A stretch of 40,354 nucleotides of DNA from an uncultured Bacilli bacterium (GCA_947627895.1 CANQXV010000003.1:1-40354), one strand, 5' to 3'. Positions 9,049 to 40,294 are shown, counted from the first letter of the stretch. Made by a program: numbers and translations. Notes: generated by a model not told the origin, from the sequence alone.

Positions 9049-11124
9049 ATGAAAAAAGTAATAATTTCTTATTTATTGGGATTTACTATGTGTTTATGTG
9101 TTTGTATAATAACCATATTTTATACAAATAGAAAAATACAAAAAGAAGAACAATACTATGATTTAGAAAATAATAATTTAATTAGTATGATGATACAAAA
9201 TGAATCAGGCGAATATGAAAAAGCTAATCAAAGTAATTGGCCAACTGATGGTTATAATTTTAATAAAACATTAAGTAAATGTGAAAATGGCAGTAAGCTT
9301 TCATGGCGTAATGATAAAGTTGTAGTTAATACCACAACATCAGATAAGTGTTATGTTTATTTTGATTTGGCAAATGGAACCGAACAATTTCCTTATCAAA
9401 TAGATTCTATTGAAGACTTAGTAAGATTATCTAAAGAAGTAGCTGAAGGAGATACGAAAGCAGGTATGACTTATGTTTTAACTAGAGATTTAGACTTTCA
9501 AGACCCGAGTTCATATGAAGATAGTTCAAGCACAACTTTTGGAGATATAAACGGAAATGAAGAAGACGAACCATTAATAACAGAATTAACAACGGGAAGA
9601 GGATTTAAATCAATAGGATTTTTTTACGGAATACTGAATGGTGGAAATAATAGAATAGATAATTTATTTATTAACACTGAAATTAATGGATATGCGGCAT
9701 TTATTTCAGTGTTAATAAATGGAGAAGTAAAAAATTTAACAATAAGTGGAGAAACAACAAGTTATAATGGTCATGATGTAGGCGGCATAGTGGCAGCTAT
9801 GGAAAATAGTAAAATTGAAAATTGTGTTAGTGAAGTTAATGTTACTAGCAATGGACCTTATTTTAATGTTGGAGGGATTGTAGGTCTTGTAGCAGGACAA
9901 AACGATAGTATAATCAAAGATTGTGTTAATAAAGGAAATATAACAGGCGGAGGAACAAGTGGCGGAATTGTAGGAGGAAATAGTTCTAGTACTAGTACGC
10001 TAACTATAAAAAATTGTTCTAATGAAGGCATAATAAATAATAATACAGGACAACATACGGGTGGCATAATAGGTTCTAGTATTGGAAGCTCTAGTGATGA
10101 GGCGTCTAATTTAAAAATTGAAGGGTGCCATAATAATGGAAAAGTTAAAAGCGAAACAGCGTATCTAGTAGGAGGCATACTTGGATATGGAAATGGAAAT
10201 GGAAATATAACTATTAATAATACTTATAATGCTGGAGAAATAACAATAAATAGCAAAACAGATTTTGGTAACGTCAGTATTGCTGGGATAATTGGTAATA
10301 TTAATATAACAAATGATTTATCAATAACAAATAGTTATAATAAAGGAATTATCAAAAATGAAGATATAGTAAATAAATTTACACATATGGGAGGTGCATT
10401 GGGACTATCAAGTGCAAGAAATACAATAATAGAAAACTTCCATAATGATAATGTCATTGATGGTGGCAACAATGGCAACAGGGTTGGTGGCATAGCCGGA
10501 GCTATTTCTAATGGAAATAATATAATAAATAAATGTTACAATACGGCAGATATTTATGGCGATTATGGTGTTGGTGGACTTATTGGACATGGATCTGGCA
10601 AAATATTTTTATTAAATAGCTATAATATAGGAAATGTCAATGGTAATACCCCAGAAGTGAGTGGCTTGATTGCTAGACAATCGCCAGGTTATTATTCTAC
10701 AGTTATAAATAGCTATAATGTAGGCAATGTTATAAGTAAAAATATTCGAGCAAATGGAATTTTAGAAATTTTAGGTGGTGCTTATTTAAATAATGTATAT
10801 AATGCTGGAAAATTATCAGAAAAAGAAACATATGGAATAGGTTATAAAGCAAGTCAAATTAGTTTACAATCATATAATATTTACTACGCAAATGGTGTAA
10901 CTGCTGGTTCAAATATAGAAAATATTGGTACTAATTATGATGAAAAATATATTAAAAGTACATCTTTTACTGAAGAATTAAATAATAATTTAGTCAATGA
11001 TACAACAATAAAAGAAGGGAGTGTCGATAAACCGTTAATGGATATTGACCCATCACTTGAAGGTTATACCTTAAGTCAATGGAAACTTGGCGATGACGGT
11101 TATCCAACATTAGTAAATAATTAG
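9049..11124 (+). CDS. Large surface protein: N-terminal anchor, small Cys-pair domain, GLUG-like beta-helix repeats
   Basis: Hydrophobic N-terminus; GTEQFPYQIDSIEDL, LTRDLDF, then many VGGIVG...NC/SYNxGxI repeats; ends WKLGDDGYPTL; Asn/Gly/Ile rich. Confidence 0.8.
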   Translation: MKKVIISYLLGFTMCLCVCIITIFYTNRKIQKEEQYYDLENNNLISMMIQNESGEYEKANQSNWPTDGYNFNKTLSKCENGSKLSWRNDKVVVNTTTSDKCYVYFDLANGTEQFPYQIDSIEDLVRLSKEVAEGDTKAGMTYVLTRDLDFQDPSSYEDSSSTTFGDINGNEEDEPLITELTTGRGFKSIGFFYGILNGGNNRIDNLFINTEINGYAAFISVLINGEVKNLTISGETTSYNGHDVGGIVAAMENSKIENCVSEVNVTSNGPYFNVGGIVGLVAGQNDSIIKDCVNKGNITGGGTSGGIVGGNSSSTSTLTIKNCSNEGIINNNTGQHTGGIIGSSIGSSSDEASNLKIEGCHNNGKVKSETAYLVGGILGYGNGNGNITINNTYNAGEITINSKTDFGNVSIAGIIGNINITNDLSITNSYNKGIIKNEDIVNKFTHMGGALGLSSARNTIIENFHNDNVIDGGNNGNRVGGIAGAISNGNNIINKCYNTADIYGDYGVGGLIGHGSGKIFLLNSYNIGNVNGNTPEVSGLIARQSPGYYSTVINSYNVGNVISKNIRANGILEILGGAYLNNVYNAGKLSEKETYGIGYKASQISLQSYNIYYANGVTAGSNIENIGTNYDEKYIKSTSFTEELNNNLVNDTTIKEGSVDKPLMDIDPSLEGYTLSQWKLGDDGYPTLVNN

Positions 11125-11183
11125 TTAATATAATTGTTTTTATTCCTATTTTTGGCTATAATAATATCAAGGAGTTTTTGAAA

Positions 11184-12797
11184 ATGAAGAAAAATGGCTT
11201 AATGGATGGTGCCTTTATTGCTACTTTAGCAATTATTATTTCCAAAATATTAGGTGTTTTATATGTTATTCCTTTTTATAATATTATTGGTGAAGCTGGT
11301 GGGGCTTTATATGGTTATGCCTATAATATTTATAACTTCTTTTTAATTATATCTAGTGCTGGTATTCCTTTAGCAATTAGCAAAATTACCAGTGAATATA
11401 ATACTTTAAAATTAAATAAAGAAAAATCTTTTATGTTTGATTATTCCAAAAAAATAATTAGAATTTTTTCAATAGTTTGTTTCTTAATTTGTTTTTTTGG
11501 AGCCCCTATTTTAGCTAATTTAATTGTTGGTGACTTAACTAATGGTAATACGGTTAGTGATGTTGCTTTTGTTATTAGATGTGTATCATTTGCTATTTTA
11601 GTAGTTCCTCTTTTAAGTATTTCTAGAGGTTACCTACAAGGACACAAATATATAGCTCCACCAGCAATTGGCCAAGTAATTGAACAATTTGTTCGAGTTT
11701 TAGTTATTGTAGTTGGTTCCTTTGTTGCTTTAAAAGTATTTAATTTAAGTGTGGTTCAAGCCGTTGGTATTGCTGTTTTTGGTGCTTGTGCGGGAGCCAT
11801 AGTCTCTTATATTTATTTACTTTTAAAAATGCGCAAAGTCAAAAAAGAAATTTTAGTTCCTTATGATGATGTTGCTAAAAGTGAAAAGAAAGCCATACTA
11901 AAAAAATTAGTTGTTTATTGTATTCCTTTTATTATTATTAATGTAGCTAACACAATTTATAACTTTGTTGATATGGTGTTAGTAATAAGAGGATTAAATC
12001 ATTTAGGTTTCCCAGCTGCCGATATTGAAACAATAAGCAGTATTTTTACCACTTGGGGTGCTAAATTAATTAGTGTTGTAACAGCGATTGCAACGGGTCT
12101 TGTTATAAGTTTAATTCCAAATATTGTGGAAGCTTACACTAAAAAGGATGAAAAAAAAGTTAATGAACATTTTAATAAAATATTACAAGTATTATTATAT
12201 GTTATTTTACCTTTAACTATTTTCTTAAGTATTTATGCAACTCCTGTATGGAGTGTTTTCTACAATGAAAGCCATTACGGACCCTTAATTTTTAAATATA
12301 CGATTTTACTTGCAACATTAGATAGTGCTTACATTATGATTTGTAGTGCCCTTCAAGGTTTAAGTAAAACGAAACTTATTTATGTATCGGTTGCAACTGG
12401 CTTAATCACCAAAACAATCTTAGATTTACCACTTATATATTTATTTAATAATCTTGGTATTGCCCCTTACTATGGAGCCATTGCGGCCACAACCATCGGT
12501 TATTTATTATCCTTAATTATTCCTCTTATTACCTTACATAAAAAATATAACTTTAGTTATAAACAAACTTTAAAATCACTACCAAAATTAATTTTAACTA
12601 CGAGTATTTTAGTAATTATTAATCAAATTATAAGGCCTCTTATCTTTAGTCATTTAACTTCTAAAATTGAAATGCTTTTAGGCCTTGCTGGAGTAGGAAT
12701 ATTATCTTTTGTAATTTACTTTATTTTAAATAAAAAACTTTTAATTGAATTAATGGGTGAAAAATTCTTTAAATTTAAAAAGAAAAAGAATGCTTAA
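11184..12797 (+). CDS. MOP-family lipid II/polysaccharide flippase (MurJ/YtgP-like)
   Basis: SKILGVLYVIPF, SSAGIPLAISK, RGYLQG, QVIEQFVRV; about 14 TMs. ATG at 11184 has AAGGAG 9 nt upstream (track uses TTG 11178). Confidence 0.85.
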   Translation: MKKNGLMDGAFIATLAIIISKILGVLYVIPFYNIIGEAGGALYGYAYNIYNFFLIISSAGIPLAISKITSEYNTLKLNKEKSFMFDYSKKIIRIFSIVCFLICFFGAPILANLIVGDLTNGNTVSDVAFVIRCVSFAILVVPLLSISRGYLQGHKYIAPPAIGQVIEQFVRVLVIVVGSFVALKVFNLSVVQAVGIAVFGACAGAIVSYIYLLLKMRKVKKEILVPYDDVAKSEKKAILKKLVVYCIPFIIINVANTIYNFVDMVLVIRGLNHLGFPAADIETISSIFTTWGAKLISVVTAIATGLVISLIPNIVEAYTKKDEKKVNEHFNKILQVLLYVILPLTIFLSIYATPVWSVFYNESHYGPLIFKYTILLATLDSAYIMICSALQGLSKTKLIYVSVATGLITKTILDLPLIYLFNNLGIAPYYGAIAATTIGYLLSLIIPLITLHKKYNFSYKQTLKSLPKLILTTSILVIINQIIRPLIFSHLTSKIEMLLGLAGVGILSFVIYFILNKKLLIELMGEKFFKFKKKKNA

Positions 12798-13990
12798 ATA
12801 TCAGCATTCCCTAGTAAAAAATCTAAAGCATTAATTTCTTTAATACCATCGAATGAGGCTTTATCATTATCCAAAGTTATAATGTATTTAGGATAATTAT
12901 CATTAATATTTTTAAGGGGCGCAAGCTCCCTTTTTAATGTTTCGGCACCCCGAATACTTAAAGCAACTTGAATGTATTTTAAACCATCATCTTTTTTGAC
13001 AACAAAATCAATTTCTTGATTACCAATTTTTCCAATATGAATATCATAACCCCGGCGCTTTAATTCTAAAAAGATGACATTTTCTAAAATACTACCTAAA
13101 TCACTTACTTCTCCTAATAGATATTTTCTTAAACCAAGATCACATACATAGTATTTATCGCCAGTTTTTAAGTATTCCTTACCTTTAATATCATAACGAC
13201 CAACATTATAAATAATGTAACTATCCTTTAACCAAGATAAATAATTTTCAATGGTATTAACCGAATTTTTTCGATTATGGGAATTTAGAGTATCACTTAT
13301 TTTTTTAGTTGAAACTAAATTGCCAATATTAGCAAAAATAAATTTAACAACGCTTTCTAAAATCATAACATCTTTAACTTTATTACGAATAATAACATCT
13401 CTCATTAAAACAGTATTATATATTCCATCTAAATAGTTACGAATTAAATCCGCATCATTATCTAAATTTATAAGATAGGGAAAACTACCATTTTCAATAT
13501 AATAATTATAGGCCTCTTCTTTATCCTTGATATTCCAGCCTTCAAAAAACTCTTTAAATGATAAGGGTAACATATGGATTTGCATATAACGACCAGTTAA
13601 AAAAGTTGCTAGTTCGCCCGATAGCATATAAGAATTAGAACCAGTTATATAGATATCCACATTATCTAGCGTAAATAAGCCATTAACCATTTTTTCAAAT
13701 TCTGGCACAATTTGCACTTCATCTAAAAATATATAATTCATTTTACTTTTTAAAAGTTTCTTTTCAATTGCATTATATAAATCGCGCCAATTAGAATAAA
13801 TATTATCACTAGGTTTTTCAAAATTCATACTGATTATTTGTTTTTCACTAACATTGTTTTGTTTTAAATAATCACGGTATAACGCTAAAAGAGTTGACTT
13901 ACCACAGCGTCTAATTCCGGTGATAATTTTGATTATTTTTTTATCCTTTAACTTTATTAAATAATTCAAATAGTCTTCTCTCTTAATCAT
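12794..13990 (-). CDS. AAA+ ATPase, AAA_14 + DUF4143 family, copy 2
   Basis: GIRRCGKST, IFLDEVQ, TGSNS, LTGRY, KYYVCDLG, LENVIF, EIDF...YIQV; diverged paralog of 4317-5522. Confidence 0.9.
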   Translation of the reverse strand: MIKREDYLNYLIKLKDKKIIKIITGIRRCGKSTLLALYRDYLKQNNVSEKQIISMNFEKPSDNIYSNWRDLYNAIEKKLLKSKMNYIFLDEVQIVPEFEKMVNGLFTLDNVDIYITGSNSYMLSGELATFLTGRYMQIHMLPLSFKEFFEGWNIKDKEEAYNYYIENGSFPYLINLDNDADLIRNYLDGIYNTVLMRDVIIRNKVKDVMILESVVKFIFANIGNLVSTKKISDTLNSHNRKNSVNTIENYLSWLKDSYIIYNVGRYDIKGKEYLKTGDKYYVCDLGLRKYLLGEVSDLGSILENVIFLELKRRGYDIHIGKIGNQEIDFVVKKDDGLKYIQVALSIRGAETLKRELAPLKNINDNYPKYIITLDNDKASFDGIKEINALDFLLGNADI

Positions 13991-14008
13991 TTTGCCTCAC
14001 CTAAATTA

Positions 14009-14037
14009 ATTATAATACCATTTTATTAGTTTGTAAA
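14009..14037 (-). promoter_or_regulatory. SigmaA promoter of ATPase copy 2
   Basis: TTTACA (14037-14032), 17-bp spacer, TATAAT (14014-14009). Confidence 0.7.
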
Positions 14038-14038
14038 G

Positions 14039-14096
14039 TTTTTTCAGTTAAATGAAATATTTTTTAATTTTTAATACTTTTTTCAGTTAAATGAAA
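14039..14096. repeat. Two identical 19-bp palindrome-containing repeats, 39-bp period (candidate operators)
   Basis: TTTTTTCAGTTAAATGAAA at 14039-14057 and 14078-14096; core TTTCA-N6-TGAAA. Confidence 0.85.
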
Positions 14097-14101
14097 ATAT
14101 T

Positions 14102-15349
14102 TTATTTTAGTAATTTATAAAATTTTAGAGCTATTTTATATAAATAATAAGCTGGTTTATCAACAATATAGTCAAATTCCCCGAGTAATTCCACTATTTC
14201 AGGATTAAAGCCTTTCTTTATTTCATAAATCGAATAGTAAGGGTTATTGGGATCTAAATCACTAGAAATACCATAGAAATTACAATATTTCTTTTTTTGT
14301 TTCAAACATTCTTTAATATGTTCATTATAAAAGACATACTTTGGTCCAAAATCTTTATATAGACTAGAGGTACCACTCATAAATGTTATGCCCTCATCGC
14401 CAATAAAAAGGCTCATTAAAGCGCCAATATTAATTGGAATGCCACCATCTTTTATCTTTTTAGCTTGAGTTAATTCTTGTTCTTTTTTAGTTATTTTTAT
14501 TTTTAATTCTTCTTCATGTTTTTTTAACTTAGGCCCAATATTTAGTTTCGCCATTTGTTTTTCTAAATTTAATAGTTCCTTTTTTAATTCATCTAAACTC
14601 ATAATAACATGTTCATAATATTTATTAGGGTCAATATAAACTACATAAAGACGCATATAATCGGACATTAAATCATACATTTTTTGATAATAACTCACGG
14701 GTCTTATCACAAAATGTTTTTTATCCGCGGTTTCTTGTAAAATAGAAACAAATAAATCCATTTCTTTAGAATCAATAGTTCTAGTTAAAACTCCCATATT
14801 ACTATATTTAACAATATTCTTACGGGTGTTTTTGCTAAAACTTTGTAAGGTATCTTCATAAGTATCCGCAAGTTTAAACCGGCATAAATTACGCGGTTGT
14901 AACGTTTCAAAATTTTTGGTAAAACCTAAATGATTGTAGCCGAGGCTTAAAAATTCTTGAAGTGTGTCTTCCCCTACAATACGCGGGTTTTCACCATTAC
15001 TATCCGTAATTTGATAAATTACATTAGGATCTACTTTTAACATAAACCCTTTGTGTTCTTTAACATATTTTATAATCTCATTATGAAATTTTGCAAGTAA
15101 GCCTGTCTCTTTATAATCAAGTAAAAAGCCCCGAGGTGCATAAAACAAACTCTTTTTTATGAGCGTACTTTTTTCTAATAATAAAGATACGCCTTTTATA
15201 ATCTCGCCATCATATAAACCTACTAAATGTCTTTTCCAGCCTGTTGTCTCTTTTAATAAACCCCATTCTGGTAATTGATAAATTGAGATATAAGGACTTT
15301 TTAAAGCCCAAGCTTTAAGGGATTGTTCATCTATTTGTTTTAATTCCAT
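14102..15349 (-). CDS. FemABX/MurMN peptidoglycan branch aminoacyltransferase
   Basis: YQLPEWGLLK, FYAPRGFLLDY, LKVDP, coiled-coil insert, NFYGIS, KKGFNP...LLGEFD. Confidence 0.88.
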   Translation of the reverse strand: MELKQIDEQSLKAWALKSPYISIYQLPEWGLLKETTGWKRHLVGLYDGEIIKGVSLLLEKSTLIKKSLFYAPRGFLLDYKETGLLAKFHNEIIKYVKEHKGFMLKVDPNVIYQITDSNGENPRIVGEDTLQEFLSLGYNHLGFTKNFETLQPRNLCRFKLADTYEDTLQSFSKNTRKNIVKYSNMGVLTRTIDSKEMDLFVSILQETADKKHFVIRPVSYYQKMYDLMSDYMRLYVVYIDPNKYYEHVIMSLDELKKELLNLEKQMAKLNIGPKLKKHEEELKIKITKKEQELTQAKKIKDGGIPINIGALMSLFIGDEGITFMSGTSSLYKDFGPKYVFYNEHIKECLKQKKKYCNFYGISSDLDPNNPYYSIYEIKKGFNPEIVELLGEFDYIVDKPAYYLYKIALKFYKLLK

Positions 15350-15351
15350 AA

Positions 15352-16575: not shown

Positions 16576-16661
16576 TAATATCACCTACTTAAAAATTTTA
16601 ACATAATCCTTTTACCTTTACAAGTTGCCAAACTTTTTTTATAATATTTATGGTGGTTATG

Positions 16662-17943: not shown

Positions 17944-17991
17944 ATTTTTTCTCCTTAACAATTTATTATTATAATCCTAAACTATCAAAAG

Positions 17992-18654: not shown

Positions 18655-18670
18655 TTTTTCATTCTCCTTT

Positions 18671-19869: not shown

Positions 19870-19876
19870 AACTTAC

Positions 19877-22701: not shown

Positions 22702-22716
22702 TTATCTTCACACCCT

Positions 22717-23157
22717 TTATTTTACTAATACAATTTTTACTAAAAATTTTACTTTCTTATGTAACTCAATTTCTACATTAGTTGTTCCTAAAGATGAAAT
22801 TGGCACTTCAATCTTAATAGCTTTTTTATCTATTTTATAACCCATTTCTTTTAATTTATCACTTATTTGTTTACTAGAAATAGTCCCAAATATTTGATCA
22901 TTTTTTCCTGTTTTAACTTTAAAAGTTAATTCTTTATTTTCTAAACTATCCTTTATTTTATTAAATTCTTTTATTCTTTCTTCTTCGGCATCTTCTCTTA
23001 TTTTTATTTCTTCATCTAGTATTTCTTTACTCCTTTTAGAGTAAGGAACAGCAAGTCCATTTTTAATTAAATAATTATTAGCATAACCATCAGATACATC
23101 CAATATAGCATCCTTTTTACCTTGGCTTTTAACATCTTTAAGTAATATTACTTTCAT
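22717..23157 (-). CDS. rplI: 50S ribosomal protein L9
   Basis: [13 protein letters not shown]...[24 protein letters not shown]. Confidence 0.97.
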
Positions 23158-23240: not shown

Positions 23241-25109
23241 TTAAGCTATTCGATATGGATTTGTTTCAGTTCCATCTCCTGAGGCAATTTTTGCGTCAGA
23301 TGAAAGATAGAAGGAAGGTCTAACACAATATAAATTATAAACATCATTGCCTATACCATTTGTCATACCTGCATAATCGATAAATCTTGCCCCGGCTCCA
23401 TATTCTGGCCAACGAGAAAGTGTCCATTCGTTAATACCCAGGTATAACCAATTATTATTTTTGACCACATCTTCATTATAATTACTTGCCTTAATATTCC
23501 AATATTCTGGTAAAGTTCCGTACATATAATCGCTTATATACATTAAACCAATATTTGAGTTAAACAATAAATCATTATCGCTGTTACATAATCTCGGTTC
23601 TTGATTTAAGGCCAATCCGTTTCCTTGCGTATAACATAAATTACTTTCTTTTGTTAATTTACTATCACCTAATTCACTCTCATATACTTCTTTAGCATTA
23701 TTAAAACTTGATGTCCCTCCGACTTCCCATATGTGACTAACAATTTTTTTTTGATAAATTTCATCTATATTATTATAGAAATACTCATTTAAGTTTTTAC
23801 TATTTAGGTCGCTTTCCTTCCACATATTTACATTAGTACTGTTCTCATATAATATGTGTTCTTTGTCCGTACTATTCCAACTATAACTTGCCAAACTATC
23901 CCAATTTGTGCCCTTATAATACATATGATTAGTACTATTATTTAAACTATATAAACTATAAGTTGCTCCACCTCCTACTTCACTATTACCTAATTGAGCT
24001 GCTGTTGCACCTTCCGCTTTAATCAATTTCATTTCATATTGTTGATTCGCATTTTTAAATAACCCTATTATTCTATATAAATCTTCATTTGTTGTACATT
24101 GTTGTGGTTCCTCTGATACTTCTGTAACATCATCTAAACATACATAGTTATTTACTATTTCACTGGCCCCACTATACCTATAGGAATTATCATTAGCTCC
24201 GTTTGTTAAGTTTTCATTATGTAATAATAATGTATTGGCTTCTGAATCTGCTAATAATTTTTCTTGTATTTCTTCTTGTTTAGTTTCTTTTTGGATTATT
24301 ACTTCCCCACTTACTTGTTTTCCGGTATTTAATTCTTGATCAGTTGGTAGGTTTATAAATGTTATGGTTATTTCCCATGTATCTGTTGTTGGCCCTGGTT
24401 GAGTATTTGGATCAGATGGTGCTGTTACTTCTATTGGTACTCCACTTGCTATGGTTATTAATCCTCCTACTTCAGTTATATCATACCCACTTATTTTCTT
24501 TGTTTGTTGTTCTTCTCCTTCTGTATATTTTATTTCTATATCATCTTTATGAGTTAATCCAACTACTCCTTCATACTCCTCAGTACCCTTTTTAACACTT
24601 AATATTAATTCTGACACTGGAGTATTATATGTTCCTTTATCTGCATCACTCAATGGTACTTGTTTAACATCTCCAGTGTCATTTTTATAACTTGAATACT
24701 CTAATTCTTTAGTATTTAATCTTAAATACACATTATAAGTTTCTCTTGCTGCTCTGGTAGCACTATTAGCTGTTAGTACTGCTTTGGCTGTTACCCCATC
24801 AGCTATACTTTGATCATTTGCTTCAAAGTTTTCCACTGTTGCTTTTATATTTATTGGTGTTAAATCATCAGTTCCTTGTTTGGGATCATTATCAATAATA
24901 TGATTTCCTTCATCAGTTGCATCCTTATCTACAATGCTAAAAGTTAAGGAATCATTAGTTCCCGTTTTAGCACTAACATCAAGGGTTTGATTATCACCAG
25001 TTTGGGCAGCAAAAAAAGCATATGTTGCTCCGGCTACTACTATTAATAATGTTAATACCCCTATTATTAATAACATTAAGTTTTTTCTTTTTTTGTCATT
25101 ATCTTTCAT
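23241..25109 (-). CDS. Surface protein with SipW/TasA-type signal peptide, TasA-like N-domain and C-terminal DUF6273/C-type-lectin-like domain
   Basis: KKRK-hydrophobic-GATYAFF leader; WEITITFIN..DQ..NTGK; SYRYSG, NNYVC, YRIIG, KLIK, GLMYISDY, EWTLSR, VRPSFYL, GDGTETNPYRI. Confidence 0.7.
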   Translation of the reverse strand: MKDNDKKRKNLMLLIIGVLTLLIVVAGATYAFFAAQTGDNQTLDVSAKTGTNDSLTFSIVDKDATDEGNHIIDNDPKQGTDDLTPINIKATVENFEANDQSIADGVTAKAVLTANSATRAARETYNVYLRLNTKELEYSSYKNDTGDVKQVPLSDADKGTYNTPVSELILSVKKGTEEYEGVVGLTHKDDIEIKYTEGEEQQTKKISGYDITEVGGLITIASGVPIEVTAPSDPNTQPGPTTDTWEITITFINLPTDQELNTGKQVSGEVIIQKETKQEEIQEKLLADSEANTLLLHNENLTNGANDNSYRYSGASEIVNNYVCLDDVTEVSEEPQQCTTNEDLYRIIGLFKNANQQYEMKLIKAEGATAAQLGNSEVGGGATYSLYSLNNSTNHMYYKGTNWDSLASYSWNSTDKEHILYENSTNVNMWKESDLNSKNLNEYFYNNIDEIYQKKIVSHIWEVGGTSSFNNAKEVYESELGDSKLTKESNLCYTQGNGLALNQEPRLCNSDNDLLFNSNIGLMYISDYMYGTLPEYWNIKASNYNEDVVKNNNWLYLGINEWTLSRWPEYGAGARFIDYAGMTNGIGNDVYNLYCVRPSFYLSSDAKIASGDGTETNPYRIA

Positions 25110-25177: not shown

Positions 25178-25201
25178 GTAAAAATATAAATGGTGATTAA
25201 A

Positions 25202-25432
25202 ATGAACTTAATAAGACTAAAAGAAATAAGAGAAGACCATGATTTACTCCAAAAAGATATTGCGAAAGTTTTAAAAATTTCTCAAGTTCAATATAGTCGA
25301 TATGAAACTGGTATTAGACTAATACCCATTGATAAATTAAATATTTTAGCATCATTTTATAAAGTTTCCGTAGATTATCTTATCTGTAGAACCGATTGTA
25401 AGAAGCCTTATCCCAAATCTATTATAAAATAA
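25202..25432 (+). CDS. XRE-family HTH repressor
   Basis: RLKEIREDHDLLQKDIAKVLKISQVQYSRYETG...LASFYKVSVDYL; GGTGA RBS favours ATG 25202 (track gives 25190). Confidence 0.92.
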   Translation: MNLIRLKEIREDHDLLQKDIAKVLKISQVQYSRYETGIRLIPIDKLNILASFYKVSVDYLICRTDCKKPYPKSIIK

Positions 25433-25457
25433 AAAATAACCAATTTCTTGGTTACTA
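25430..25457. terminator. rpsR terminator / right copy of the 20-bp direct repeat
   Basis: Minus strand: TAG stop, TAACCAA-GAAA-TTGGTTA hairpin, then TTTTTT. Confidence 0.8.
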
Positions 25458-25670
25458 TTTAACAAATGGTATTAAAGCCATATATCTTGCATATTTAACT
25501 TGATTTGCAATATGTCTTTGATGTTTCGCACAAGCACCAGTCATTCTTCTTGGTAAAATCTTGCCTTTATCATTAATATATTTATTAATAATCATAACAT
25601 CTTTGTAATCAACACTTTTTCCAGCGCACATTTGACATATTTTCTTTTTCTTACGATAAAATTCTGCCAT
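25455..25670 (-). CDS. rpsR: 30S ribosomal protein S18 (zinc-binding type)
   Basis: CQMC...DYKD...GKILPRRMTGACAKHQR...ARYMALIPF. Confidence 0.97.
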   Translation of the reverse strand: MAEFYRKKKKICQMCAGKSVDYKDVMIINKYINDKGKILPRRMTGACAKHQRHIANQVKYARYMALIPFVK

Positions 25671-26175: not shown

Positions 26176-26177
26176 TA

Positions 26178-26518: not shown

Positions 26519-26538
26519 AACTTTTTTTACTCGCGATT

Positions 26539-26567
26539 ATTATAACAAATAATATTACTCATTTCAA
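26539..26567 (-). promoter_or_regulatory. SigmaA promoter of rpsF-ssb-rpsR
   Basis: TTGAAA-17-TATAAT with extended TG. Confidence 0.8.
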
Positions 26568-26580
26568 GCACTTATGCATG

Positions 26581-26604
26581 AAAAAAGTGCCCTTAAGCAC
26601 TTTT
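26581..26604 (-). terminator. Terminator overlapping the acyltransferase stop codon
   Basis: AAAAGTGC-TTAAGG-GCACTTTTTT on the minus strand. Confidence 0.65.
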
Positions 26605-27723: not shown

Positions 27724-27734
27724 CCCTCTTATTC

Positions 27735-29018: not shown

Positions 29019-29074
29019 TTCTCACACCTTCTATATTAACTCTATCTTATCATAAAAAAGCCAAGAAAAAAATA

Positions 29075-30510: not shown

Positions 30511-30520
30511 ATTCTGCCTC

Positions 30521-31621: not shown

Positions 31622-31638
31622 TTTTTTATTCCCCCTAA

Positions 31639-33183: not shown

Positions 33184-33364
33184 AATCAATCACCTTTTTT
33201 AATTTTCGCATAAATTCTAATCTATCCATCATTATTTCCCGACCACAATTATTGCATTTTATTTTTATATCAACGCCATCTCTAATTATGGTCCATAAAT
33301 TAGTACCACAAGCATGTTGTTTTTTCATTATTACTTGATTACCAAGTTTAAATTCTCTATTCAT
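33164..33364 (-). CDS. DUF951 (YyzM-like) protein
   Basis: MKKQHACGTNLW...GVDIKIKCNNCGR..MM.R motif; typical soj-ychF region gene. Confidence 0.9.
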   Translation of the reverse strand: MNREFKLGNQVIMKKQHACGTNLWTIIRDGVDIKIKCNNCGREIMMDRLEFMRKLKKVIDFEKKEK

Positions 33365-34236
33365 TAGTCATCCTCAACTTTAATATCAAGTCTTTCTAAT
33401 AATTGTTCTAATTCCTCTTTATTGGAAAAATATATTTCCATTTTATTTTTAGTTATTCTAACCTTGGTATTTAATTTTTCAACCGCTAAATTTTCATATA
33501 ACCGATAATTATTTTCAGTTTTTATTTTATTTTTCTTAGGTAATACATCGGTAGTTGTCATTTTTTCTAAATCTCGAACATTAATATCTTCATTGATAAT
33601 TTTATGAGCTAAATTAATTATTTGCTCGTCGTCATCTAATTTACTTAATACCCGGGCATGAGACATAGAAATTTCCTTTTTTTCAACCATTTTTTTTACT
33701 TCTTCGGGTAATTTCAATAAACCTAAAATATTAGTTACATAACTTCTACTTTTACCCATTTTGCTAGCAAATTCTTCTTGCGTATACCCTCTTAATTTAA
33801 TAATATTGTTAATAGATGTCGCTTCATCTATTGGATTTAAATCTTCTCTTTGAATATTTTCGATTAAAGCCAGTTCCATCATTTCTTGATCAGTAAAATC
33901 TTTAATTATGGCAGGAACCTTAGTTAAACCGGCAATTCTCGCTGCTTTAGTTCTTCTTTCACCGGCGACTAGTTCATAACCTTTAATACTTTTTTTAACA
34001 ATAACTGGTTGCAAAAGTCCATATTCTTTAATTGATGCCGCCATTTCATTTAAAGTTTCAGGATCAAAGCTTTTTCTTGGTTGATAAGGATTACTTCTTA
34101 TTTCATCCAAATTAATTTCAACAATATTATTCACATTTTCTTCAACTATTGATTGTTCAAAATTATCGAAATCAATAACCGAATTAGAAAATAATTGTTC
34201 TAATCCTTTACCTAAGGCTTTCTTTTTAGTTTCCAT
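33364..34236 (-). CDS. parB: Chromosome partitioning protein ParB/Spo0J
   Basis: ALGKGL, NPYQPRKSF, GLLQP, AGERR, ALIENIQREDLNPI, HTH GKSRSYVTN. Confidence 0.96.
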   Translation of the reverse strand: METKKKALGKGLEQLFSNSVIDFDNFEQSIVEENVNNIVEINLDEIRSNPYQPRKSFDPETLNEMAASIKEYGLLQPVIVKKSIKGYELVAGERRTKAARIAGLTKVPAIIKDFTDQEMMELALIENIQREDLNPIDEATSINNIIKLRGYTQEEFASKMGKSRSYVTNILGLLKLPEEVKKMVEKKEISMSHARVLSKLDDDEQIINLAHKIINEDINVRDLEKMTTTDVLPKKNKIKTENNYRLYENLAVEKLNTKVRITKNKMEIYFSNKEELEQLLERLDIKVEDD

Positions 34237-35011
34237 CGCGACTAATCACTTCCTTTGCTAAATTGGCATATGCTTCGGTAGCTCTACTAGTAGGATCATA
34301 TTCATTAATTGGTTTACCATGGCTAGGCGCTTCTACTAATCTAACCAACCGCGGAATAATGGTATTAAATACTTTATCTCCAAAATATTTTCTTATTTCT
34401 TCTATAACTTCTAAACCAATGTTAGTCCGCCCATCTAACATTGTTAAAAGTACTCCTTCAATTCTTAAATTAGCATTCATACTATTTTGAATCGTAATAA
34501 TAGTAGTTAATAGTTGCGTAATCCCTTCCAACGCATAAAATTCACATTGCACCGGAATAATCACGGAATCACTAGCAACTAAGGCATTCATTGTCCCAAG
34601 ACCTAATGATGGTTGACAATCAATAATTATATAATCAAAATTTTCTTTTACTTTTTCTAATTGATTTTTTAATTGAAAATTTTGTTTAAAACTTTTATCT
34701 GTTAACATTTTTTTTACGAATTCCACATCAACACCAGCCAAATTAATAGTTGAGGGAATAATACTTAAATTTTGAAATTTAGTTTTTATTATAGCTTTAC
34801 TTATATCACATTGGTTAGTTATCAGTTCATAAATATCATTATCAAAATCATTTGAATTTAAACCTAAACCTGTCGTAGCATTACTTTGAGGATCCATATC
34901 GATTAATAAAACTTTTTTATTTAACCGACCTAAAGCAGCAGCTAGATTAATACTAGTAGTTGTTTTGCCAACGCCACCTTTTTGATTTACCAAGGAAATA
35001 ATTTTAGCCAT
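34226..35011 (-). CDS. parA: Chromosome partitioning ATPase ParA/Soj
   Basis: NQKGGVGKTTT, DMDPQSNAT, PVQCEFYALEG, RLVEAPSHG; GAGGTG RBS before ATG 35011. Confidence 0.96.
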   Translation of the reverse strand: MAKIISLVNQKGGVGKTTTSINLAAALGRLNKKVLLIDMDPQSNATTGLGLNSNDFDNDIYELITNQCDISKAIIKTKFQNLSIIPSTINLAGVDVEFVKKMLTDKSFKQNFQLKNQLEKVKENFDYIIIDCQPSLGLGTMNALVASDSVIIPVQCEFYALEGITQLLTTIITIQNSMNANLRIEGVLLTMLDGRTNIGLEVIEEIRKYFGDKVFNTIIPRLVRLVEAPSHGKPINEYDPTSRATEAYANLAKEVISRDGN

Positions 35012-35098
35012 AACAAGCACCTCTTTTAAATATTTCGCTACTTCTTATTTTATCATATATTTCTCATAAATTGAAAAAAAGTTAATGACTTTTTATCA

Positions 35099-35587
35099 TT
35101 AACTATTTCTACTACATACATAACCAAGTTCTTCTAAAGATTTTCGAAACTCACTAAAATTAAGTGTTACTTCTTCGCCTTCAGCATTCTTGGTATAATC
35201 AATTTCATCACCAACAGTGTATTCGATACTTAAAGCATCATCATTATAAAAGACCTTCCCCGGATATTCGTCTTCTTTACCTAATTTGTATTCTTCTAAA
35301 GTTGCATAAGTTAATACTATTGATGATTGACTACTTATTACTTTTTCGCCATCAATTTTTAAATTTTCAATGTGAGTTTCTCGATAGTTAGCATCAATTT
35401 CGTTATCTACCGTACATTTAATATTATAGCCTTCTAAAGATTCCGTTTGATGATTCTCTGGTTCTGGACTAGTTTCCGTTTTTTTTACTTCAGGTTTATT
35501 ATTTAACACAATTATAATAGCAATTACCAAAATAACAACTAAAGCAACAATACTTCCCATAATAATTAATTTTTTCTTATTAGTCAT
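35099..35587 (-). CDS. Membrane-anchored two-Cys extracellular protein, paralog B
   Basis: N-terminal TM; KC...YRE...NLKIDG...YTKNAEGEEV...LEELGYVC aligns with 35603-36124. Confidence 0.78.
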   Translation of the reverse strand: MTNKKKLIIMGSIVALVVILVIAIIIVLNNKPEVKKTETSPEPENHQTESLEGYNIKCTVDNEIDANYRETHIENLKIDGEKVISSQSSIVLTYATLEEYKLGKEDEYPGKVFYNDDALSIEYTVGDEIDYTKNAEGEEVTLNFSEFRKSLEELGYVCSRNS

Positions 35588-35602
35588 AATTTTTCCCTTC
35601 AA

Positions 35603-36124
35603 TTATTGTTCATTAGCAGTTGTACACGTATAACCATTGTTTTCTAATATTGCCTTATAATTACTATAGCTTTGTACTACTTCATTACCATCAGCATCTT
35701 TTGTAAAATCAGCATTTTCTTCGGTATCAATATATTCAATAATTTTTTCAGCATCATTAAATTCTACTCTATTACCATAATTATCGTTTTTAGCTTCATT
35801 ATATAATTCTTCATCTGTATATTCGACTCTAACAGACGATAATGAATTTAATAATCTATCCCCTTCTACTTTTAAATTATTGGTATATATTTCCCGATAA
35901 CCTTCGTTTTCAGTAATAATTTCACATTTAGCAGTGTATGATTTTAAAATTTCCAAACCTTCTTGTTGTTCAGTTTGTTGCCCTTCTTGTGTTTCATTTT
36001 CCTTAGGAACTTCTTGTTTATTCACTTTAGCCACAATTAATAAAACGACAATTACAATAGCAAGCAATAATACTGTTAAACCTATGGATATGATTTGATT
36101 ATTTTTTCTCTTTTCCTCTTTCAT
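35603..36124 (-). CDS. Membrane-anchored two-Cys extracellular protein, paralog A
   Basis: N-terminal TM; KC...YRE...NLKVEG...FTKDADGNEV...LENNGYTC. Confidence 0.78.
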   Translation of the reverse strand: MKEEKRKNNQIISIGLTVLLLAIVIVVLLIVAKVNKQEVPKENETQEGQQTEQQEGLEILKSYTAKCEIITENEGYREIYTNNLKVEGDRLLNSLSSVRVEYTDEELYNEAKNDNYGNRVEFNDAEKIIEYIDTEENADFTKDADGNEVVQSYSNYKAILENNGYTCTTANEQ

Positions 36125-36125
36125 T

Positions 36126-36551
36126 TTATAACCCTCTTTCAAAATAATATATTATTTTTGAATTATTATCTATTGTTTGTTCTAATTGAATACTACCATT
36201 TTCATCAAATGTTACTACGCCGTTTATATCTAAATAATCGCCTTTCGATACAACATATATCGAATCATCCCTATAATACTCGCTCATAGAGCAAACACTA
36301 TTATCTTCATAAAAAGTGCATATACTAACATGATTTTCCATAAAATTAAGGAATAATTGTACATTACTTTCTTCTTCTGACATTGTTTCATTTTTATATT
36401 GCACAACTTTATTTAAATTCCATTTTGTTCCTACTAAATCATAAGTCTCCTTTTTCAAAGTTCCTTTTTTAATATATATTAATATCCAAATCGATATTAA
36501 TATTATTAACAAACCAGCAATTACACAGAGCTCTTTAATATATTTTTTCAT
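36126..36551 (-). CDS. Membrane-anchored protein, possible lipocalin-like beta-barrel
   Basis: TM followed by LVGTKWNL, beta-strand pattern, Cys pair, ends YYFER; AAAGGA RBS before ATG 36551. Confidence 0.65.
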   Translation of the reverse strand: MKKYIKELCVIAGLLIILISIWILIYIKKGTLKKETYDLVGTKWNLNKVVQYKNETMSEEESNVQLFLNFMENHVSICTFYEDNSVCSMSEYYRDDSIYVVSKGDYLDINGVVTFDENGSIQLEQTIDNNSKIIYYFERGL

Positions 36552-36562
36552 AATCTTTTCCT

Positions 36563-39500
36563 TTACCAGCAAGACCCTGATCCACTTGCATATCCTTGAT
36601 ATTGACATGCAGAATTACAATCGTTTGCACAGAAACTTTTTTGATGAGCCTTATAAGTGGTGTCCTCATAACAGTAGCAACTACATGTACGATATGGACT
36701 ACATGAATTACTGCTTCCTCCACCCGAAGAGGAACAAGTTGTTTGACAACCATCATTGCCATAACAATATCCTCCTATCGAAGTGTTTTTTTGCATACCA
36801 TCAGATTCGGAAATATAATAATAACAATATCCTTTATTAGCACCAGCCTCGGTACTTTTAGGTAAATATTGTCGTCCAGTTTGAAGACAACCATTGCTTG
36901 TACTTAAGAACCACCAACGATATTCGGATGACCAAGTACTACTATCAATTCTTAACCAACGCCAGCCCCCTAACCAAGAACCACTTTCAAAGTATTTCCA
37001 ACAAGAGCCTTCCCATTGCCATCCTTCTTTTACAACAGGTTTCTTTTCGGTTCGAGCTGAACTATATGCATAATCAGAATTGCCTTGAGTATCATATACA
37101 TCTACTTCAATAGAATAAGAGGTATCCTCGCTTAAGCCCGTCATATCACATGATACGGTACCACTACCACTTTTTGTACATTTTAGGGAATAATTAGCGT
37201 AGAATTGGACACTTGATATCGAATATGTTCCTTTAGTAACATAGGCATCAACATGAATAGAATTTGGTCCCGTAGCATATGCACTTGATATCCGTACCTG
37301 TGGTTCGTCTACATCAAGGGTATAGGCAGAACTATAATCAGAGTCCCAATTTCCTTGGGTATCATAGATATAGACTGTTATACTATGATAACTATTCATA
37401 GATAACCCAGAAATGGTACATGAAGAAGAACTAGAATCATATCTTGTACATTCCTTATAGCCATCCACATAATATTCATATCTATCTATTGAATATGTCC
37501 CTTTGGTTCCCCGAGCACTAACATATATTGAATCTGCTGATGTACCATAAGCATTAGTTATTTCAACCTGTGGGTCCACTACTGATAATGTTCGAGCTGA
37601 ACTACTAGCGGTTGAGTAGTTCCCTTTTGTATCATAAATATAAACTGTAATAGAATAATACGTATCAATGCTTAAACCAGTTACATCACAAGATGCAGAA
37701 GTACCAGATGTACTTTTCGTACATTTTTTATTTCCAACATAAAATTCGTATCTATCTATTGAATATGTTCCTTTAGTTCCTGTAGCACTAACATATATCG
37801 AATTTGTTCCCGTTCCATAAGCATTAGTAATTCTTACAGTTGGTTTTTTAACATCTGCAGTTTTTATTGTTTTGGAAGCCGACGTAGACTTATTATAACT
37901 ATTGGTTGCCTCAACACTTATTGTATAATTAGTACTCATTGTTAAATTAGTAAATGTATATGAACTACAATTACCAGTTACCCAAGCATTGGTTCCTATT
38001 TTATACCTACATGAGGATAAAGTACCACTTCTAGCAGTCGCATTTGGATAAACAGTTATACTATCAGTTTCAGAACTTGAAGTTATATTTAATGTTGGTG
38101 TTAAAATCTGATTTGTTTTTTGAGTTAGTGACCTTTCACCAGTATGACCATTAACGTCAGTTACTACTACTTTTAAAGTGTAAGAAGTATTTTCATTTAA
38201 ACTTTGATATACATAGGTATTACTTGCGGCCATATTATTGGTATAAACGTATTTTCCATTTAAATAGTAATCATATTTTTTGATAGTTCCTGATCCTGCT
38301 GTTCCAATGGCCCTTAAAGATATACTATAGTAATCAACTACTGAAACTGCTAAATCTACCTTTGGATCTTCATAATCTGTTTTAGCTTTTACACTTGCTT
38401 CGGCTGTCAATCCCTTTTGGTCTGTTACTCTTACCGTAAAGGTATATTCCGTATTACTTGTTAATCCTGTAAAGGTATGCGTATCAACTATTGCACTACT
38501 ATTTACTGTTACCCATGAACCATTTCCTACTTTATATTCATACTTCGCTATTGTCCCGCTTCCTATTGTTGTCGTTGCTTTTACTACTACTTGATTTATT
38601 GTTTGACTTACATGTTCTAATACTACCTTTGGTCCTTCATATAATGTATGGCATGGCAATTCATATTCTTCCGAATAATTTCCTCGATTATTTAAGGCTT
38701 TGACTCTTATTTTATAATCTTTATCACTTTCTAGACCATCAAACGTATATTTATAGCTTTCACTTTCTTTCCACGTTTTTCCTTCATCTATACTATAGAA
38801 ATATTTACTTATTCTTCCATCTTGGCTTTCCGCGGTTACTTCTACTTCTATGCTATGGAATGATTCGTTTTTCCCTACACTTTTGATTATGACTCCTACA
38901 TCTGCTACCCGATAGGGATTGGATCTTGTTCCTTCTCCTCCTGTTAGGATTATGGTATCTTTTAAATTGATTGTTCCCCTTGCCATACTTACGGTACTAC
39001 TTGGGTTCCATCCCACATTTCCTTCAATATTTATAGCATAGTAGTTACTCGTTCCTACTTCTTTACTTACACTCCATTCTATTAATCCCGCTTGATACAT
39101 CCAGTTCTTTTCTCTGGCTTGGCTATAGGCTGTTCCGATTGTTTCCCAATATGATGGATGTGCACTATACATATATTCATTTACATACATAAGTCCTGTC
39201 TTACTATTCGTGGTTGCTCCTTTTATTTCTGCTGCATACACTTCTTTCGCCGTTTTTCCTATTTCACTTCTTGCAAATCCAGTGGTATACCATGCTGCAT
39301 TTGTTACCATATTTTGCCATTTGGATTCATACCCATTTATCATATCACTTCTCGTTGTTACACCACTGTTGGCTTTATTTATATCTTTTTCTTTTATTAG
39401 TTTGATATTATTTCCATAGACTCCAATTATTCGATACATATTTTCATCTGGACATGTATCTTCATCTGTTCCAAAGCATATATAGTTTTTTACATTTACA

Positions 39501-40294
39501 CCGGCATAACGATATGAATAATCTCCTGCTTCATCTTCTCCATATCCTGAGTCTTCTCCATCTTTATCATGATAGTAGATTCCTCCTTCTTCATTATTTT
39601 CTAGTTTATAATTATCTTTTAAACATTTGGCAAAGTTCTTTCCCTTACATACTTCTCCTAAACTACTTTCTCCTACTTCAATTTCTTTATTAATATCTAG
39701 TTTTAAGGTTACATAAAAGCTTTGACAATTTTCTTCATTTTCATTACATTTTGCTACACCATCTTCGGTAGATTTTTCTTTATATTCTGTAACTAGATAG
39801 TAGTTTACTCTGTCATCTTCGTCTCTTTCCACATTCATGGTTTCGATATATCTACTTAAACCTTCACTTAAGCCTTCATATGAGGCATCACATTTTTTAT
39901 TCGCAGCCGCATTAAAGCATTCCGTGATTATTTCATCCGATACCACCAACATTTTATTTACGTTAAATTTTTTGGTTATATTTTCAAGCTCCGCGGGATA
40001 ATCTTCACTTGCTTGATATTCAGTAAATAGTTCACTATATACATCTTTATTTATTTCTAATGTATATTTTTCATTAAATCCCGTATCTTTTAAATCATTT
40101 ATTTCCGTTTTATTTATTAAAAAATCGGCAAGATAATAGTTTCGATACAAATATCCTATATCATCATAATATACTTTGGTTTTTTCTTCCGTGATCGCAT
40201 TTCTATAACTTCCATACAATACTAGTAATGCCGCGGCCAAGAATACTATGGTTATTATTGTTTCGATAAATACAAATCCATTTTTCTTTTTCAC
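36563..40294 (-). CDS. Giant type IV prepilin-like adhesin: pilin N-terminus, DUF6273/C-lectin-like domain, 7 FN3, cell-wall-binding-like repeats, Cys-rich tail
   Basis: MKKKNG|FVFIETIITIV class III signal (G-1, F+1, E+5); SYRYAG/YRIIG/GLMY/GEGT..NPY domain; GL...T.Y...V FN3 motifs; GW..W.YF repeats; GTG start with AAGGTG RBS. Confidence 0.8.
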   Translation of the reverse strand: MKKKNGFVFIETIITIVFLAAALLVLYGSYRNAITEEKTKVYYDDIGYLYRNYYLADFLINKTEINDLKDTGFNEKYTLEINKDVYSELFTEYQASEDYPAELENITKKFNVNKMLVVSDEIITECFNAAANKKCDASYEGLSEGLSRYIETMNVERDEDDRVNYYLVTEYKEKSTEDGVAKCNENEENCQSFYVTLKLDINKEIEVGESSLGEVCKGKNFAKCLKDNYKLENNEEGGIYYHDKDGEDSGYGEDEAGDYSYRYAGVNVKNYICFGTDEDTCPDENMYRIIGVYGNNIKLIKEKDINKANSGVTTRSDMINGYESKWQNMVTNAAWYTTGFARSEIGKTAKEVYAAEIKGATTNSKTGLMYVNEYMYSAHPSYWETIGTAYSQAREKNWMYQAGLIEWSVSKEVGTSNYYAINIEGNVGWNPSSTVSMARGTINLKDTIILTGGEGTRSNPYRVADVGVIIKSVGKNESFHSIEVEVTAESQDGRISKYFYSIDEGKTWKESESYKYTFDGLESDKDYKIRVKALNNRGNYSEEYELPCHTLYEGPKVVLEHVSQTINQVVVKATTTIGSGTIAKYEYKVGNGSWVTVNSSAIVDTHTFTGLTSNTEYTFTVRVTDQKGLTAEASVKAKTDYEDPKVDLAVSVVDYYSISLRAIGTAGSGTIKKYDYYLNGKYVYTNNMAASNTYVYQSLNENTSYTLKVVVTDVNGHTGERSLTQKTNQILTPTLNITSSSETDSITVYPNATARSGTLSSCRYKIGTNAWVTGNCSSYTFTNLTMSTNYTISVEATNSYNKSTSASKTIKTADVKKPTVRITNAYGTGTNSIYVSATGTKGTYSIDRYEFYVGNKKCTKSTSGTSASCDVTGLSIDTYYSITVYIYDTKGNYSTASSSARTLSVVDPQVEITNAYGTSADSIYVSARGTKGTYSIDRYEYYVDGYKECTRYDSSSSSCTISGLSMNSYHSITVYIYDTQGNWDSDYSSAYTLDVDEPQVRISSAYATGPNSIHVDAYVTKGTYSISSVQFYANYSLKCTKSGSGTVSCDMTGLSEDTSYSIEVDVYDTQGNSDYAYSSARTEKKPVVKEGWQWEGSCWKYFESGSWLGGWRWLRIDSSTWSSEYRWWFLSTSNGCLQTGRQYLPKSTEAGANKGYCYYYISESDGMQKNTSIGGYCYGNDGCQTTCSSSGGGSSNSCSPYRTCSCYCYEDTTYKAHQKSFCANDCNSACQYQGYASGSGSCW
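37049..37852 (-). repeat. Three tandem 270-bp FN3-coding repeats
   Basis: GAATATGT at 37221, 37491 and 37761; TCTATCTATTGAATATGT identical at 37481 and 37751; protein repeat TKGTYSI...YDTxGN. Confidence 0.85.

Follow-up and report, generated by a model that had tools for sequence, protein, structure and literature searches.

The window described here is the whole of contig C3 (40,354 bp) from an uncultured Bacilli bacterium (GCA_947627895.1, CANQXV010000003.1:1-40354), and its three large orphan genes probably belong to a repertoire of surface binding proteins, built combinatorially, that occurs in one genus of small-genome gut Bacilli. The genome that carries the window (G000) is assembled to 1.18 Mb in 93 contigs, with about 29% G+C and 93% completeness; the congener genomes used in comparisons include G003, G011, G012, G015, and G042. 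Most genes in the window are housekeeping genes on the minus strand (ftsEX, two FemAB genes, dnaB, rplI, rpsR, ssb, rpsF, ychF, parB, and parA). The three orphans are P0003 (9049-11124, plus strand), P0001 (23241-25109, minus strand), and P0002 (36563-40294, minus strand), and no NCBIfam family was found for any of them. P0001 and P0002 share a lectin-fold head, and the three proteins begin with three different N-terminal modules, termed here module A (P0001), module B (P0003), and module P (the pilin-type module of P0002). An original prediction, made from the window alone, had proposed a lineage-specific set of passenger domains shuffled among export modules; the size of the family and the diversity-generating retroelement (DGR) on one of its paralogs go beyond what it recognized.

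The domain common to P0001 and P0002 is about 290 residues long. BLASTP matches the two proteins over two collinear segments, joining P0001 residues 517-622 to P0002 residues 363-464 (31% identity, E 1e-11) and P0001 residues 252-374 to P0002 residues 197-311 (27% identity, E 9e-7). A lectin-domain profile built from paralogs within G000 places the domain at residues 298-622 of P0001 (window 23244-24218, minus strand; E 1.4e-92) and at residues 247-466 of P0002 (window 38897-39556, minus strand), where a shortened internal copy is matched in two pieces (E 3.3e-27). A collinear domain on these two proteins had been predicted from motifs that are readable in the translations and the alignment; BLASTP and the profile agree on it, and the coordinates first given (about 23244-24230 and about 38905-39580) lie near the profile limits. 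P0003 has no likeness to P0001 or P0002 (best E 0.71).

The AF2 model of the P0001 head, built from a 91-row alignment, has a pLDDT of 91.6 and a pTM of 0.92. Foldseek returns a single PDB match at E<=1e-3, the cryo-EM structure of the Thomasclavelia ramosa immunoglobulin A (IgA) peptidase (9qa6, E 2.6e-7), and VIA-align superposes the head on the N-terminal domain of that structure (residues 37-303) with Z 15.6, rmsd 3.3, 200 aligned residues, and 18% identity. The available excerpts of the two relevant reports name this domain DUF6273 (PMC12402451) and describe it as C-type lectin-like, enlarged, and not needed for IgA cleavage (PMC12237041). The next VIA-align matches (Z 4-7) belong to the C-type-lectin/FGE fold and include CarF, TvpA, PorKN, PvdO, EgtB, the C-terminal domain of Legionella Lcl, Mtd, and TaqVP, together with many animal C-type lectins. 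Some database homologs of the head are also annotated as DUF6273. As modeled, the shared head has an enlarged C-type lectin fold and belongs to the DUF6273 class by fold, rather than being a member defined by the family model, and the earlier label "lectin-like" holds at the level of fold. Searches of PDB sequences with the lectin-domain profile gave one weak match (NKG2-A, E 0.24), the ESM Atlas gave only unnamed Bacillota clusters and one 12% DUF6273 cluster, and a literature query for "DUF6273" gave, by title, no work on this lineage.

The lectin-fold head is present on 25 open reading frames (ORFs) of G000 (E<1e-10), and the three profiles for the head, module A, and module B together mark 50 ORFs that occupy 74,307 nt, or 6.27% of the assembly. 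Twenty-two ORFs contain the domain's end, and in 21 of them the head closes the protein, with no more than 6 aa after it; the lone exception is P0002, which continues for 780 more residues. Each of the 24 congeners surveyed (0.9-1.5 Mb each) contains 11-60 matches to the head profile, whereas only 2 of 16 genomes from other families have any, both weak. Across 200 genomes of the class, the complete module A turned up only within the genus, and the claim of a lineage-specific repertoire is thereby borne out. In public data the head profile finds 6119 cluster representatives at E<=1e-3, of which 782 remain at the stricter E<=1e-30; the relatives with names are uncultured Bacilli or "Tenericutes" metagenome-assembled genomes from the gut, Candidatus Onthocola, CAG:460, and CAG:609. 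Among the database relatives, P0250, P0242, and P0246 have 3-6 matched lectin-fold stretches per protein and reach up to 2446 aa. Many ORFs of the family sit at contig ends in G000, so that the family itself breaks the assembly.

The combinatorial character of the repertoire is evident in a matrix of modules and heads, obtained by searching G000 with the module profiles and then with Pfam. Module A carries the lectin head on nine ORFs, and it also carries ALK_LTK_GRD (C56), DUF285 (C4, C5), GLUG (C9), PT-HINT (C30), and unassigned heads. Module B carries the lectin head on two ORFs (C47, C39), GLUG on six (P0003 and five paralogs, the paralogs being counted by module and length), ALK_LTK_GRD on two (C2, C35), and unassigned heads. 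Module P carries the lectin head on two pilin-type proteins (P0002 and one on contig C54). Three heads (lectin, GLUG, and ALK_LTK_GRD) are thus common to two unrelated N-terminal modules, A and B. Because modules A and B also carry GLUG, glycine-rich, DUF285, and toxin-type passengers, the mix-and-match arrangement is supported beyond the lectin head. The toxin-type case is a module-A protein with FN3 repeats and a PT-HINT pretoxin domain at its end (C30:12451-14421), which runs off its contig; module A may therefore also deliver a polymorphic toxin.

Phylogenetic trees of the parts are consistent with head exchange, at a modest rate. In the module-A tree (15 rows), the lectin-bearing proteins do not form one group: separating them from the rest takes four changes, at least two of which are forced by well-supported branches, and one lectin-bearing protein (CLec_C66) is sister (97*) to a pair made up of a glycine-rich-domain protein and a protein with an unassigned head. 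In the lectin-domain tree (18 rows), the two module-B heads group together (93/47). The passenger shuffling of the original prediction is upheld by the matrix and the module-A tree; its extent is limited by the lectin-domain tree, which is weighed below. The sequences favor a history of few head exchanges followed by much duplication.

Module A begins with a leader and continues into a 230-aa domain. In P0001 (622 aa; module-A profile E 1.5e-123), the leader covers residues 1-31 (25017-25109, minus strand) and consists of a basic n-region, about 18 hydrophobic residues, and the motif G-A-T-Y-A-F-F; across the module this motif is conserved as G-A-T-Y-A-F-F-x-A-Q. Among 14 aligned module-A N-termini, G17, L22, A28, Y30, A31, F33, and Q36 are invariant. 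The AF2 model of the N-terminal module (pLDDT 83.4) has a helix at residues 3-36, disorder at residues 40-49, and a beta-sandwich stalk domain at residues 52-279 (24273-24956, minus strand), where values are mostly above 88. Since the small-residue and aromatic motif is invariant, the preferred reading is that a signal peptidase would cut the P0001 leader after Ala31. A prediction of three copies of residues 32-290 as an oligomer scored 0.00 against a mark of 0.42 and, run without controls, is uninformative.

The place of P0001 in the genome is also specific to G000 among the genomes compared. P0001 and its neighboring XRE-family gene lie between rpsR (25455-25670) and rplI (22717-23157); no gene of the family lies upstream of rplI in any of the five congeners examined, and in G015 the order rpsF-ssb-rpsR-rplI-dnaB is contiguous. 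Of the claim that all three proteins interrupt core synteny, the part on P0001 is thereby shown.

Module B consists of a membrane helix followed by a Cys-containing domain of about 80 aa. P0003 (691 aa, 9049-11124; module-B profile E 8.5e-60) has this module at residues 1-112 (9049-9384, plus strand), followed by a GLUG-type repeat region. The GLUG match in P0003 itself (19.2 bits) falls under the cut-off of 20.5 bits, and the paralogs C92 and C1_36806 score 41.7-58.7 bits. In G000, module B occurs on 14 ORFs (P0003 and 13 others, two of them with the lectin-like domain at the C-terminal end), and database proteins with the module number 194; the ESM Atlas gave no usable match for it. P0003 was thus correctly singled out as a third protein with a different N-terminal module.

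Two of the three orphans are paired with small divergent genes for XRE-family helix-turn-helix (HTH) proteins, as the original prediction had stated. One such gene (25190-25432, plus strand; HTH_3 50 bits) lies 81 nt from the P0001 start, and the other (8705-8944, minus strand; HTH_3 34.1 bits) lies 105 nt from the P0003 start. The pairing recurs elsewhere: the window XRE genes have 14 homologs in G000, and 9 of these are divergent from a module-A or module-B gene whose start is 81-157 nt away, although the pair on contig C9 overlaps an uncertain start and many family genes begin too near contig ends for pairing to be judged. The contig ends 60 nt upstream of the P0002 start, and no XRE gene adjoins that protein. 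Divergent XRE genes at nine loci are in keeping with the claim of individual regulation, for which gene order is the basis, and the small XRE repressors probably switch single genes.

P0002 (1243 aa) combines a minor-pilin module, the lectin-fold domain, a run of repeats, and a distinctive tail. The prepilin leader and pilin module cover residues 1-200 (39695-40294, minus strand), and the protein begins KKKNG/FVFIE, which by eye is a canonical prepilin motif with Glu5. The type IV prepilin leader that had been assigned to P0002 stands on this motif, while Pfam N_methyl does not report P0002 and scores the G011 ortholog at 20.2 bits against a cut-off of 21.2. After the lectin-fold domain come immunoglobulin (Ig)/FN3-like repeats at residues ~467-1085 (37040-38896, minus strand; fn3 E 4.7e-18, with Big_7 and PKD-like matches) and a Trp- and Cys-rich tail at residues ~1086-1243 (36566-37039, minus strand), for which there is no Pfam family at cut-off.

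Of 30 congeners, 28 have one copy of the P0002 pilin module (~200 residues), mostly as a gene of ~195 aa that stands by itself; fusion of this module to the lectin domain and repeats is limited to G000, G012, and G042 (3 of 31 genomes). G011 has a cluster of three pilin genes that encode a 192-aa pilin, a 302-aa protein in which a pilin-like leader without Glu5 is followed by the lectin domain, and a 202-aa pilin (N_methyl 24.6 bits); contig C54 of G000 keeps the last two. The stand-alone 192-aa gene (G011, L125:8077-8655) is absent from its place in G000 (C54:3657-4063). In G000 the 192-aa pilin has a single homolog, the N-terminal part of P0002, so that P0002 looks like a copy that was moved and fused. 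The layout known for modular minor pilins, in which a pilin module bears a grafted binding module and is encoded among minor pilin genes, is found in P0002, in the G011 protein, and in its C54 counterpart.

One paralog, on contig C71 and outside the window, is an active DGR target. A complete cassette spans C71:1-2793 (L116) and comprises the 3' end of a lectin-domain target gene (C71:1-393), a variable repeat inside that gene (VR, C71:224-310), a template repeat (TR, C71:757-843), a small MutS_I-like ORF (C71:977-1384), a 124-aa ORF (C71:1353-1727), and a reverse transcriptase (RT, C71:1711-2793; RVT_1 73-74.5 bits). The variable repeat differs from its template at 17 positions, all of them template adenines, and 62 of 63 non-adenine places are identical; the template is read as consecutive AAY codons. 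The variable repeat is the block between EWTITR and VRPSFYL, the most divergent part of the domain among paralogs. Its equivalent in P0001 lies between EWTLSR and VRPSFYL at residues 567-595 (23325-23411, minus strand), again the most variable block of the alignment. In public gut-metagenome contigs, which conceal rare variants, two forms of the C71 variable stretch coexist within one run. Among the listed variants, 16 of 16 places inside the variable repeat face template adenines, as do 24 of its 87 places overall, and the template itself shows a single listed difference.

The assembly contains no further variable repeats for the C71 template; the candidate on contig C49 was rejected as a diverged relative with 13 non-adenine mismatches. 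There are signs of a second system elsewhere in G000. An Asn-codon-rich, template-like repeat lies 3' of the paralog on contig C10 (C10:1645-1797, L117), with no RT beside it and a DUF4143 ATPase gene next to it; 56 of its 66 positions are identical and 9 of 10 mismatches fall at adenines, so that the hallmark of a DGR target is partly present. A second RT (C22:16462-17542) is split by a stop. These two elements may represent a second DGR that has decayed or is served in trans. Literature queries joining "RF39" with "diversity-generating retroelement" returned nothing; the name of the genus itself was not used as a query.

The genome encodes export and pilus machinery suited to these modules. 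A SipW-type signal peptidase (C2:7390-8376) scores 89.6-91.3 bits on TIGR02228 (cut-off 51.85), and a separate LepB-type signal peptidase is also present. The prepilin peptidase (C59:2177-2932; Peptidase_A24 and A24_N) adjoins PilC (C59:2942-4513; two T2SSF matches), PilB is encoded at C17:12256-13734 (T2SSE, 408 bits), and there are four ordinary pilins with the GFTLVELL signature. The original prediction had staked itself on cognate peptidases and assembly genes, and all are present (SipW-type, LepB-type, PilD, PilB, and PilC). For SipW this is a weak test of cognacy, such a peptidase being present in 113 of 200 class genomes; module A or its leader occurs in 7 of the 200, and co-occurrence across the class was set aside as uninformative. 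G000 also has five sortases, and the proteins of the repertoire have no LPXTG-type ends, so that the sortases are apparently unused by the family.

A Tad-like core lies on the same contig as the SipW-type gene (C2:6873-17006) and includes a 1069-aa secreted protein, a DUF5411, FN3, and VanY/M15 protein, a CpaB-like protein, a TadA/VirB11-like ATPase, and two membrane proteins. The SipW-type gene comes next in G000, at the end of this core. SipW was considered as a part of the Tad-like machine and rejected, the orthologs being 84 kb apart or on different contigs in all five congeners.

Taken together, these features suggest a protein plan in which an N-terminal export or anchoring module is followed by an optional Ig/FN3 stalk and a distal head that would be displayed at the cell surface and would bind ligands there. 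Three routes to the surface can be envisaged. Along route A, the leader with its G-A-T-Y-A-F-F motif precedes the 230-aa beta-sandwich and would be cleaved, most likely by the SipW-type peptidase, or else kept as an anchor. Along route B, the membrane helix and the ~80-aa domain would present the head. Along route P, heads grafted onto type IV minor pilins (P0002 and the C54 protein) would be carried to the pilus tip. Binding would be diversified in three ways: genes duplicate and then diverge, chiefly within a single surface stretch; heads are occasionally exchanged between modules; and, in one paralog or more, a DGR hypermutates the same surface stretch. The divergent XRE genes at many loci would switch single genes.

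Several results weigh against this reading, or narrow it. The Pfam model DUF6273 (PF19789) has no match to P0001 or P0002 at E<=0.01, and it exceeds its cut-off in only 1 of 18 paralog domains (C54, 24.5 against 23.5 bits); since the model misses P0001 and P0002, the class assignment rests on fold and on annotated homologs. In the lectin-domain tree, the three classes of N-terminal module need only two changes, the minimum possible, so that transfers of heads between module classes appear to have been few and followed by duplication. In the same tree 12 of 15 inner branches are unresolved, and the pilin pair (P0002 and C54, 96/80) is joined on long branches. The six head types of the module-A tree can likewise be explained by five single replacements, again the minimum. 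No template-like match to P0001 or P0002 is found anywhere in G000. The SipW/TasA-type leader originally proposed for P0001 has the motif in its favor; TIGR04088, the model for SipW-cognate signals (cut-off 19 bits), matches one of four module-A leaders below its cut-off (15.5 bits, E 0.015) and did not report that of P0001. No ORF of the family lies in the 18 kb (G011) or 14 kb (G003) of sequence surrounding the SipW-type ortholog. Counts and architectures of the repertoire are, moreover, incomplete because 13 of the 50 ORFs in G000 reach past contig ends.

Other explanations have been considered for module A. It is unlikely, on balance, that the module-A proteins are TasA-like fibre subunits, from which SipW would cut the leader so that a freed strand inserts into the next beta-sandwich and the heads decorate the polymer. 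The leader does resemble SipW-dependent peptides (in the TIGR04088 match to one leader and in a TapA model match of E 0.093), the SipW-type peptidase stands beside a LepB-type one, the residues after the putative cleavage site (40-49) are disordered in the monomer model, and the proteins are without a sortase signal. The top Foldseek match of the N-terminal module is indeed the TasA fibre 8aur (E 2.1e-3, probability 0.82), yet no match reaches E 1e-3, and VIA-align places TasA at rank 16 (Z 5.0, rmsd 3.7, 124 aligned) among generic beta-sandwiches whose best Z is 6.5. No camelysin/TasA Pfam family was reported, there is no operon like tapA-sipW-tasA (in G011 and G003 the ortholog of the peptidase is a solitary gene), and at least 15 different large subunits would need to co-polymerize. 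The fibre that had been suggested for the SipW-like class is not supported: nothing in the results shows fibre formation, and the fold matches to TasA are weak. It is considerably less probable that the module-A helix is retained, as in the core of archaeal- or Tad-type pilins, making these proteins large subunits of a type IV-like filament such as that of the Tad-like machine on C2. The AF2 "lollipop" (helix 3-36, then an all-beta domain) has this shape, the SipW-type gene ends the Tad-like core in G000, and the module-A profile matches no PDB sequences other than those of four archaeal type IV pilins, in alignments that cover the helix and the first strand. Those matches are not significant, however (E 0.22-1.1, with hydrophobic bias); the leader has neither the G/A before the helix nor Glu5, and the adjacency of peptidase and Tad genes is lost in all five congeners.

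An origin of the genes as remnants of phage receptor-binding proteins, scattered by prophages in the manner of tentaclin- or Mtd-like DGR targets, is more improbable still. Gut phages are the best-known bearers of DUF6273 heads and DGRs, judging from the excerpted text of PMC10743442, a DGR cassette is present in G000, and the genes occupy variable spots. Each intact copy nevertheless has its own leader, anchor, or pilin module; a Pfam survey of the window shows no phage genes near P0001, which sits between rpsR and rplI; the family is present throughout the 24 congeners at its usual 11-60 matches; and the C71 cassette is followed by housekeeping-looking ORFs. The reading preferred here remains that of a combinatorial repertoire of surface binding proteins. 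A bolder extension of it, which is doubtful at present, is that the ~50 genes form a programmable coat of XRE-paired on/off cassettes, with few anchor-by-head combinations shown at once and a dedicated leader route through the SipW-type peptidase for all of module A. If true, this would amount to surface variation in the style of mycoplasmas run by dedicated repressors, with the DGR adding unlimited variants of one head.

Some neighboring genes of the window deserve separate mention. Three genes for AAA_14/DUF4143 ATPases were noted, two in the window (4317-5522 and 12794-13990) and one on another contig (C10:2152-3492); the first two bracket the region of P0003 and a flippase, and the third comes after the orphan template repeat on C10. 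Such genes may be markers of variable spots. On the 3' side of P0002 (35099-36608) there are three ORFs for small membrane-anchored proteins with no family assigned, two of which are paralogs of each other by eye. Paralogs of these two, again by eye, also lie 3' of the P0002 ortholog in G012 (L126:11333-12350), and a small ORF of similar kind lies after the SipW-type gene on C2 (6873-7334).

The lineage is common in animal and human gut metagenomes, judging from record titles. The devotion of ~6% of a 1.18-Mb genome to anchor-by-head combinations, together with a hypermutating copy, suggests that attachment is a trait both central to these bacteria and quick to change. The heads, stalks, and pilin fusions are concrete reagents for binding screens; the repertoire also supplies a cellular context for DUF6273 and extends the idea of the modular pilin to a new type of head.

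Comparison with known systems clarifies what is shared and what is new. Like the heads of G000, the T. ramosa IgA peptidase (IgAse/ThomasA, 9QA6 residues 31-321) has an enlarged C-type-lectin-like core of ~290 residues and is a surface protein of a low-GC gut Bacillota; in the peptidase, however, the domain, for which structural zinc ligands are reported, is N-terminal to a metallopeptidase and the protein is sortase-anchored, whereas in G000 the domain is a C-terminal head on non-enzymatic proteins and is repeated 25-fold. The variable proteins of DGRs (Mtd, TvpA, and TaqVP) have the same fold class (Z 4.2-6.3) and a variable stretch in the C-terminal part, and the C71 paralog has a template, an RT, and adenine-specific variation. 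Excerpts of one report describe DUF6273 as a DGR target in the "tentaclins" of gut phages (PMC10743442). Unlike these systems, nearly all copies in G000 are without a template, and their diversity consists mainly of fixed paralogs on cellular export modules rather than one phage tail gene.

The TapA-SipW-TasA system of Bacillus subtilis resembles module A in the small-residue and aromatic motif at the end of the leader's hydrophobic stretch, a motif that is presumably like TasA's own site. Both have a SipW-type peptidase alongside a general one and, in the model of P0001, a mature N-terminal beta-sandwich. They differ in that TIGR04088 stays below its cut-off, the family has no peptidase operon, and the fold match is weak; the G000 proteins are also far larger and have swappable heads. 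In Streptococcus sanguinis, the minor pilins PilB and PilC carry an adhesive module, either vWA or a lectin, grafted onto a class III leader and pilin module; their genes lie with those of other minor pilins, and models place the proteins at the pilus tip, as far as the excerpted report describes them (PMC9934059). P0002 and the C54/G011 proteins share this layout, and the genes for pilus machinery are present. The graft is in contrast a C-type-lectin-fold domain of the DUF6273 class rather than a concanavalin-like lectin, P0002 adds about 780 residues beyond it, and the fusion occurs in 3 of 31 genomes. The ingredients of the repertoire are thus already known, at least from the excerpted reports of DUF6273/C-type-lectin DGR targets (PMC10743442) and lectin-bearing modular minor pilins (PMC9934059), and from SipW-type leaders. 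What is new is the anchor-by-head matrix within one genome (~6% of its DNA), the recurrent pairing with XRE genes, and the presence of a C-type-lectin-fold head on type IV minor pilins.

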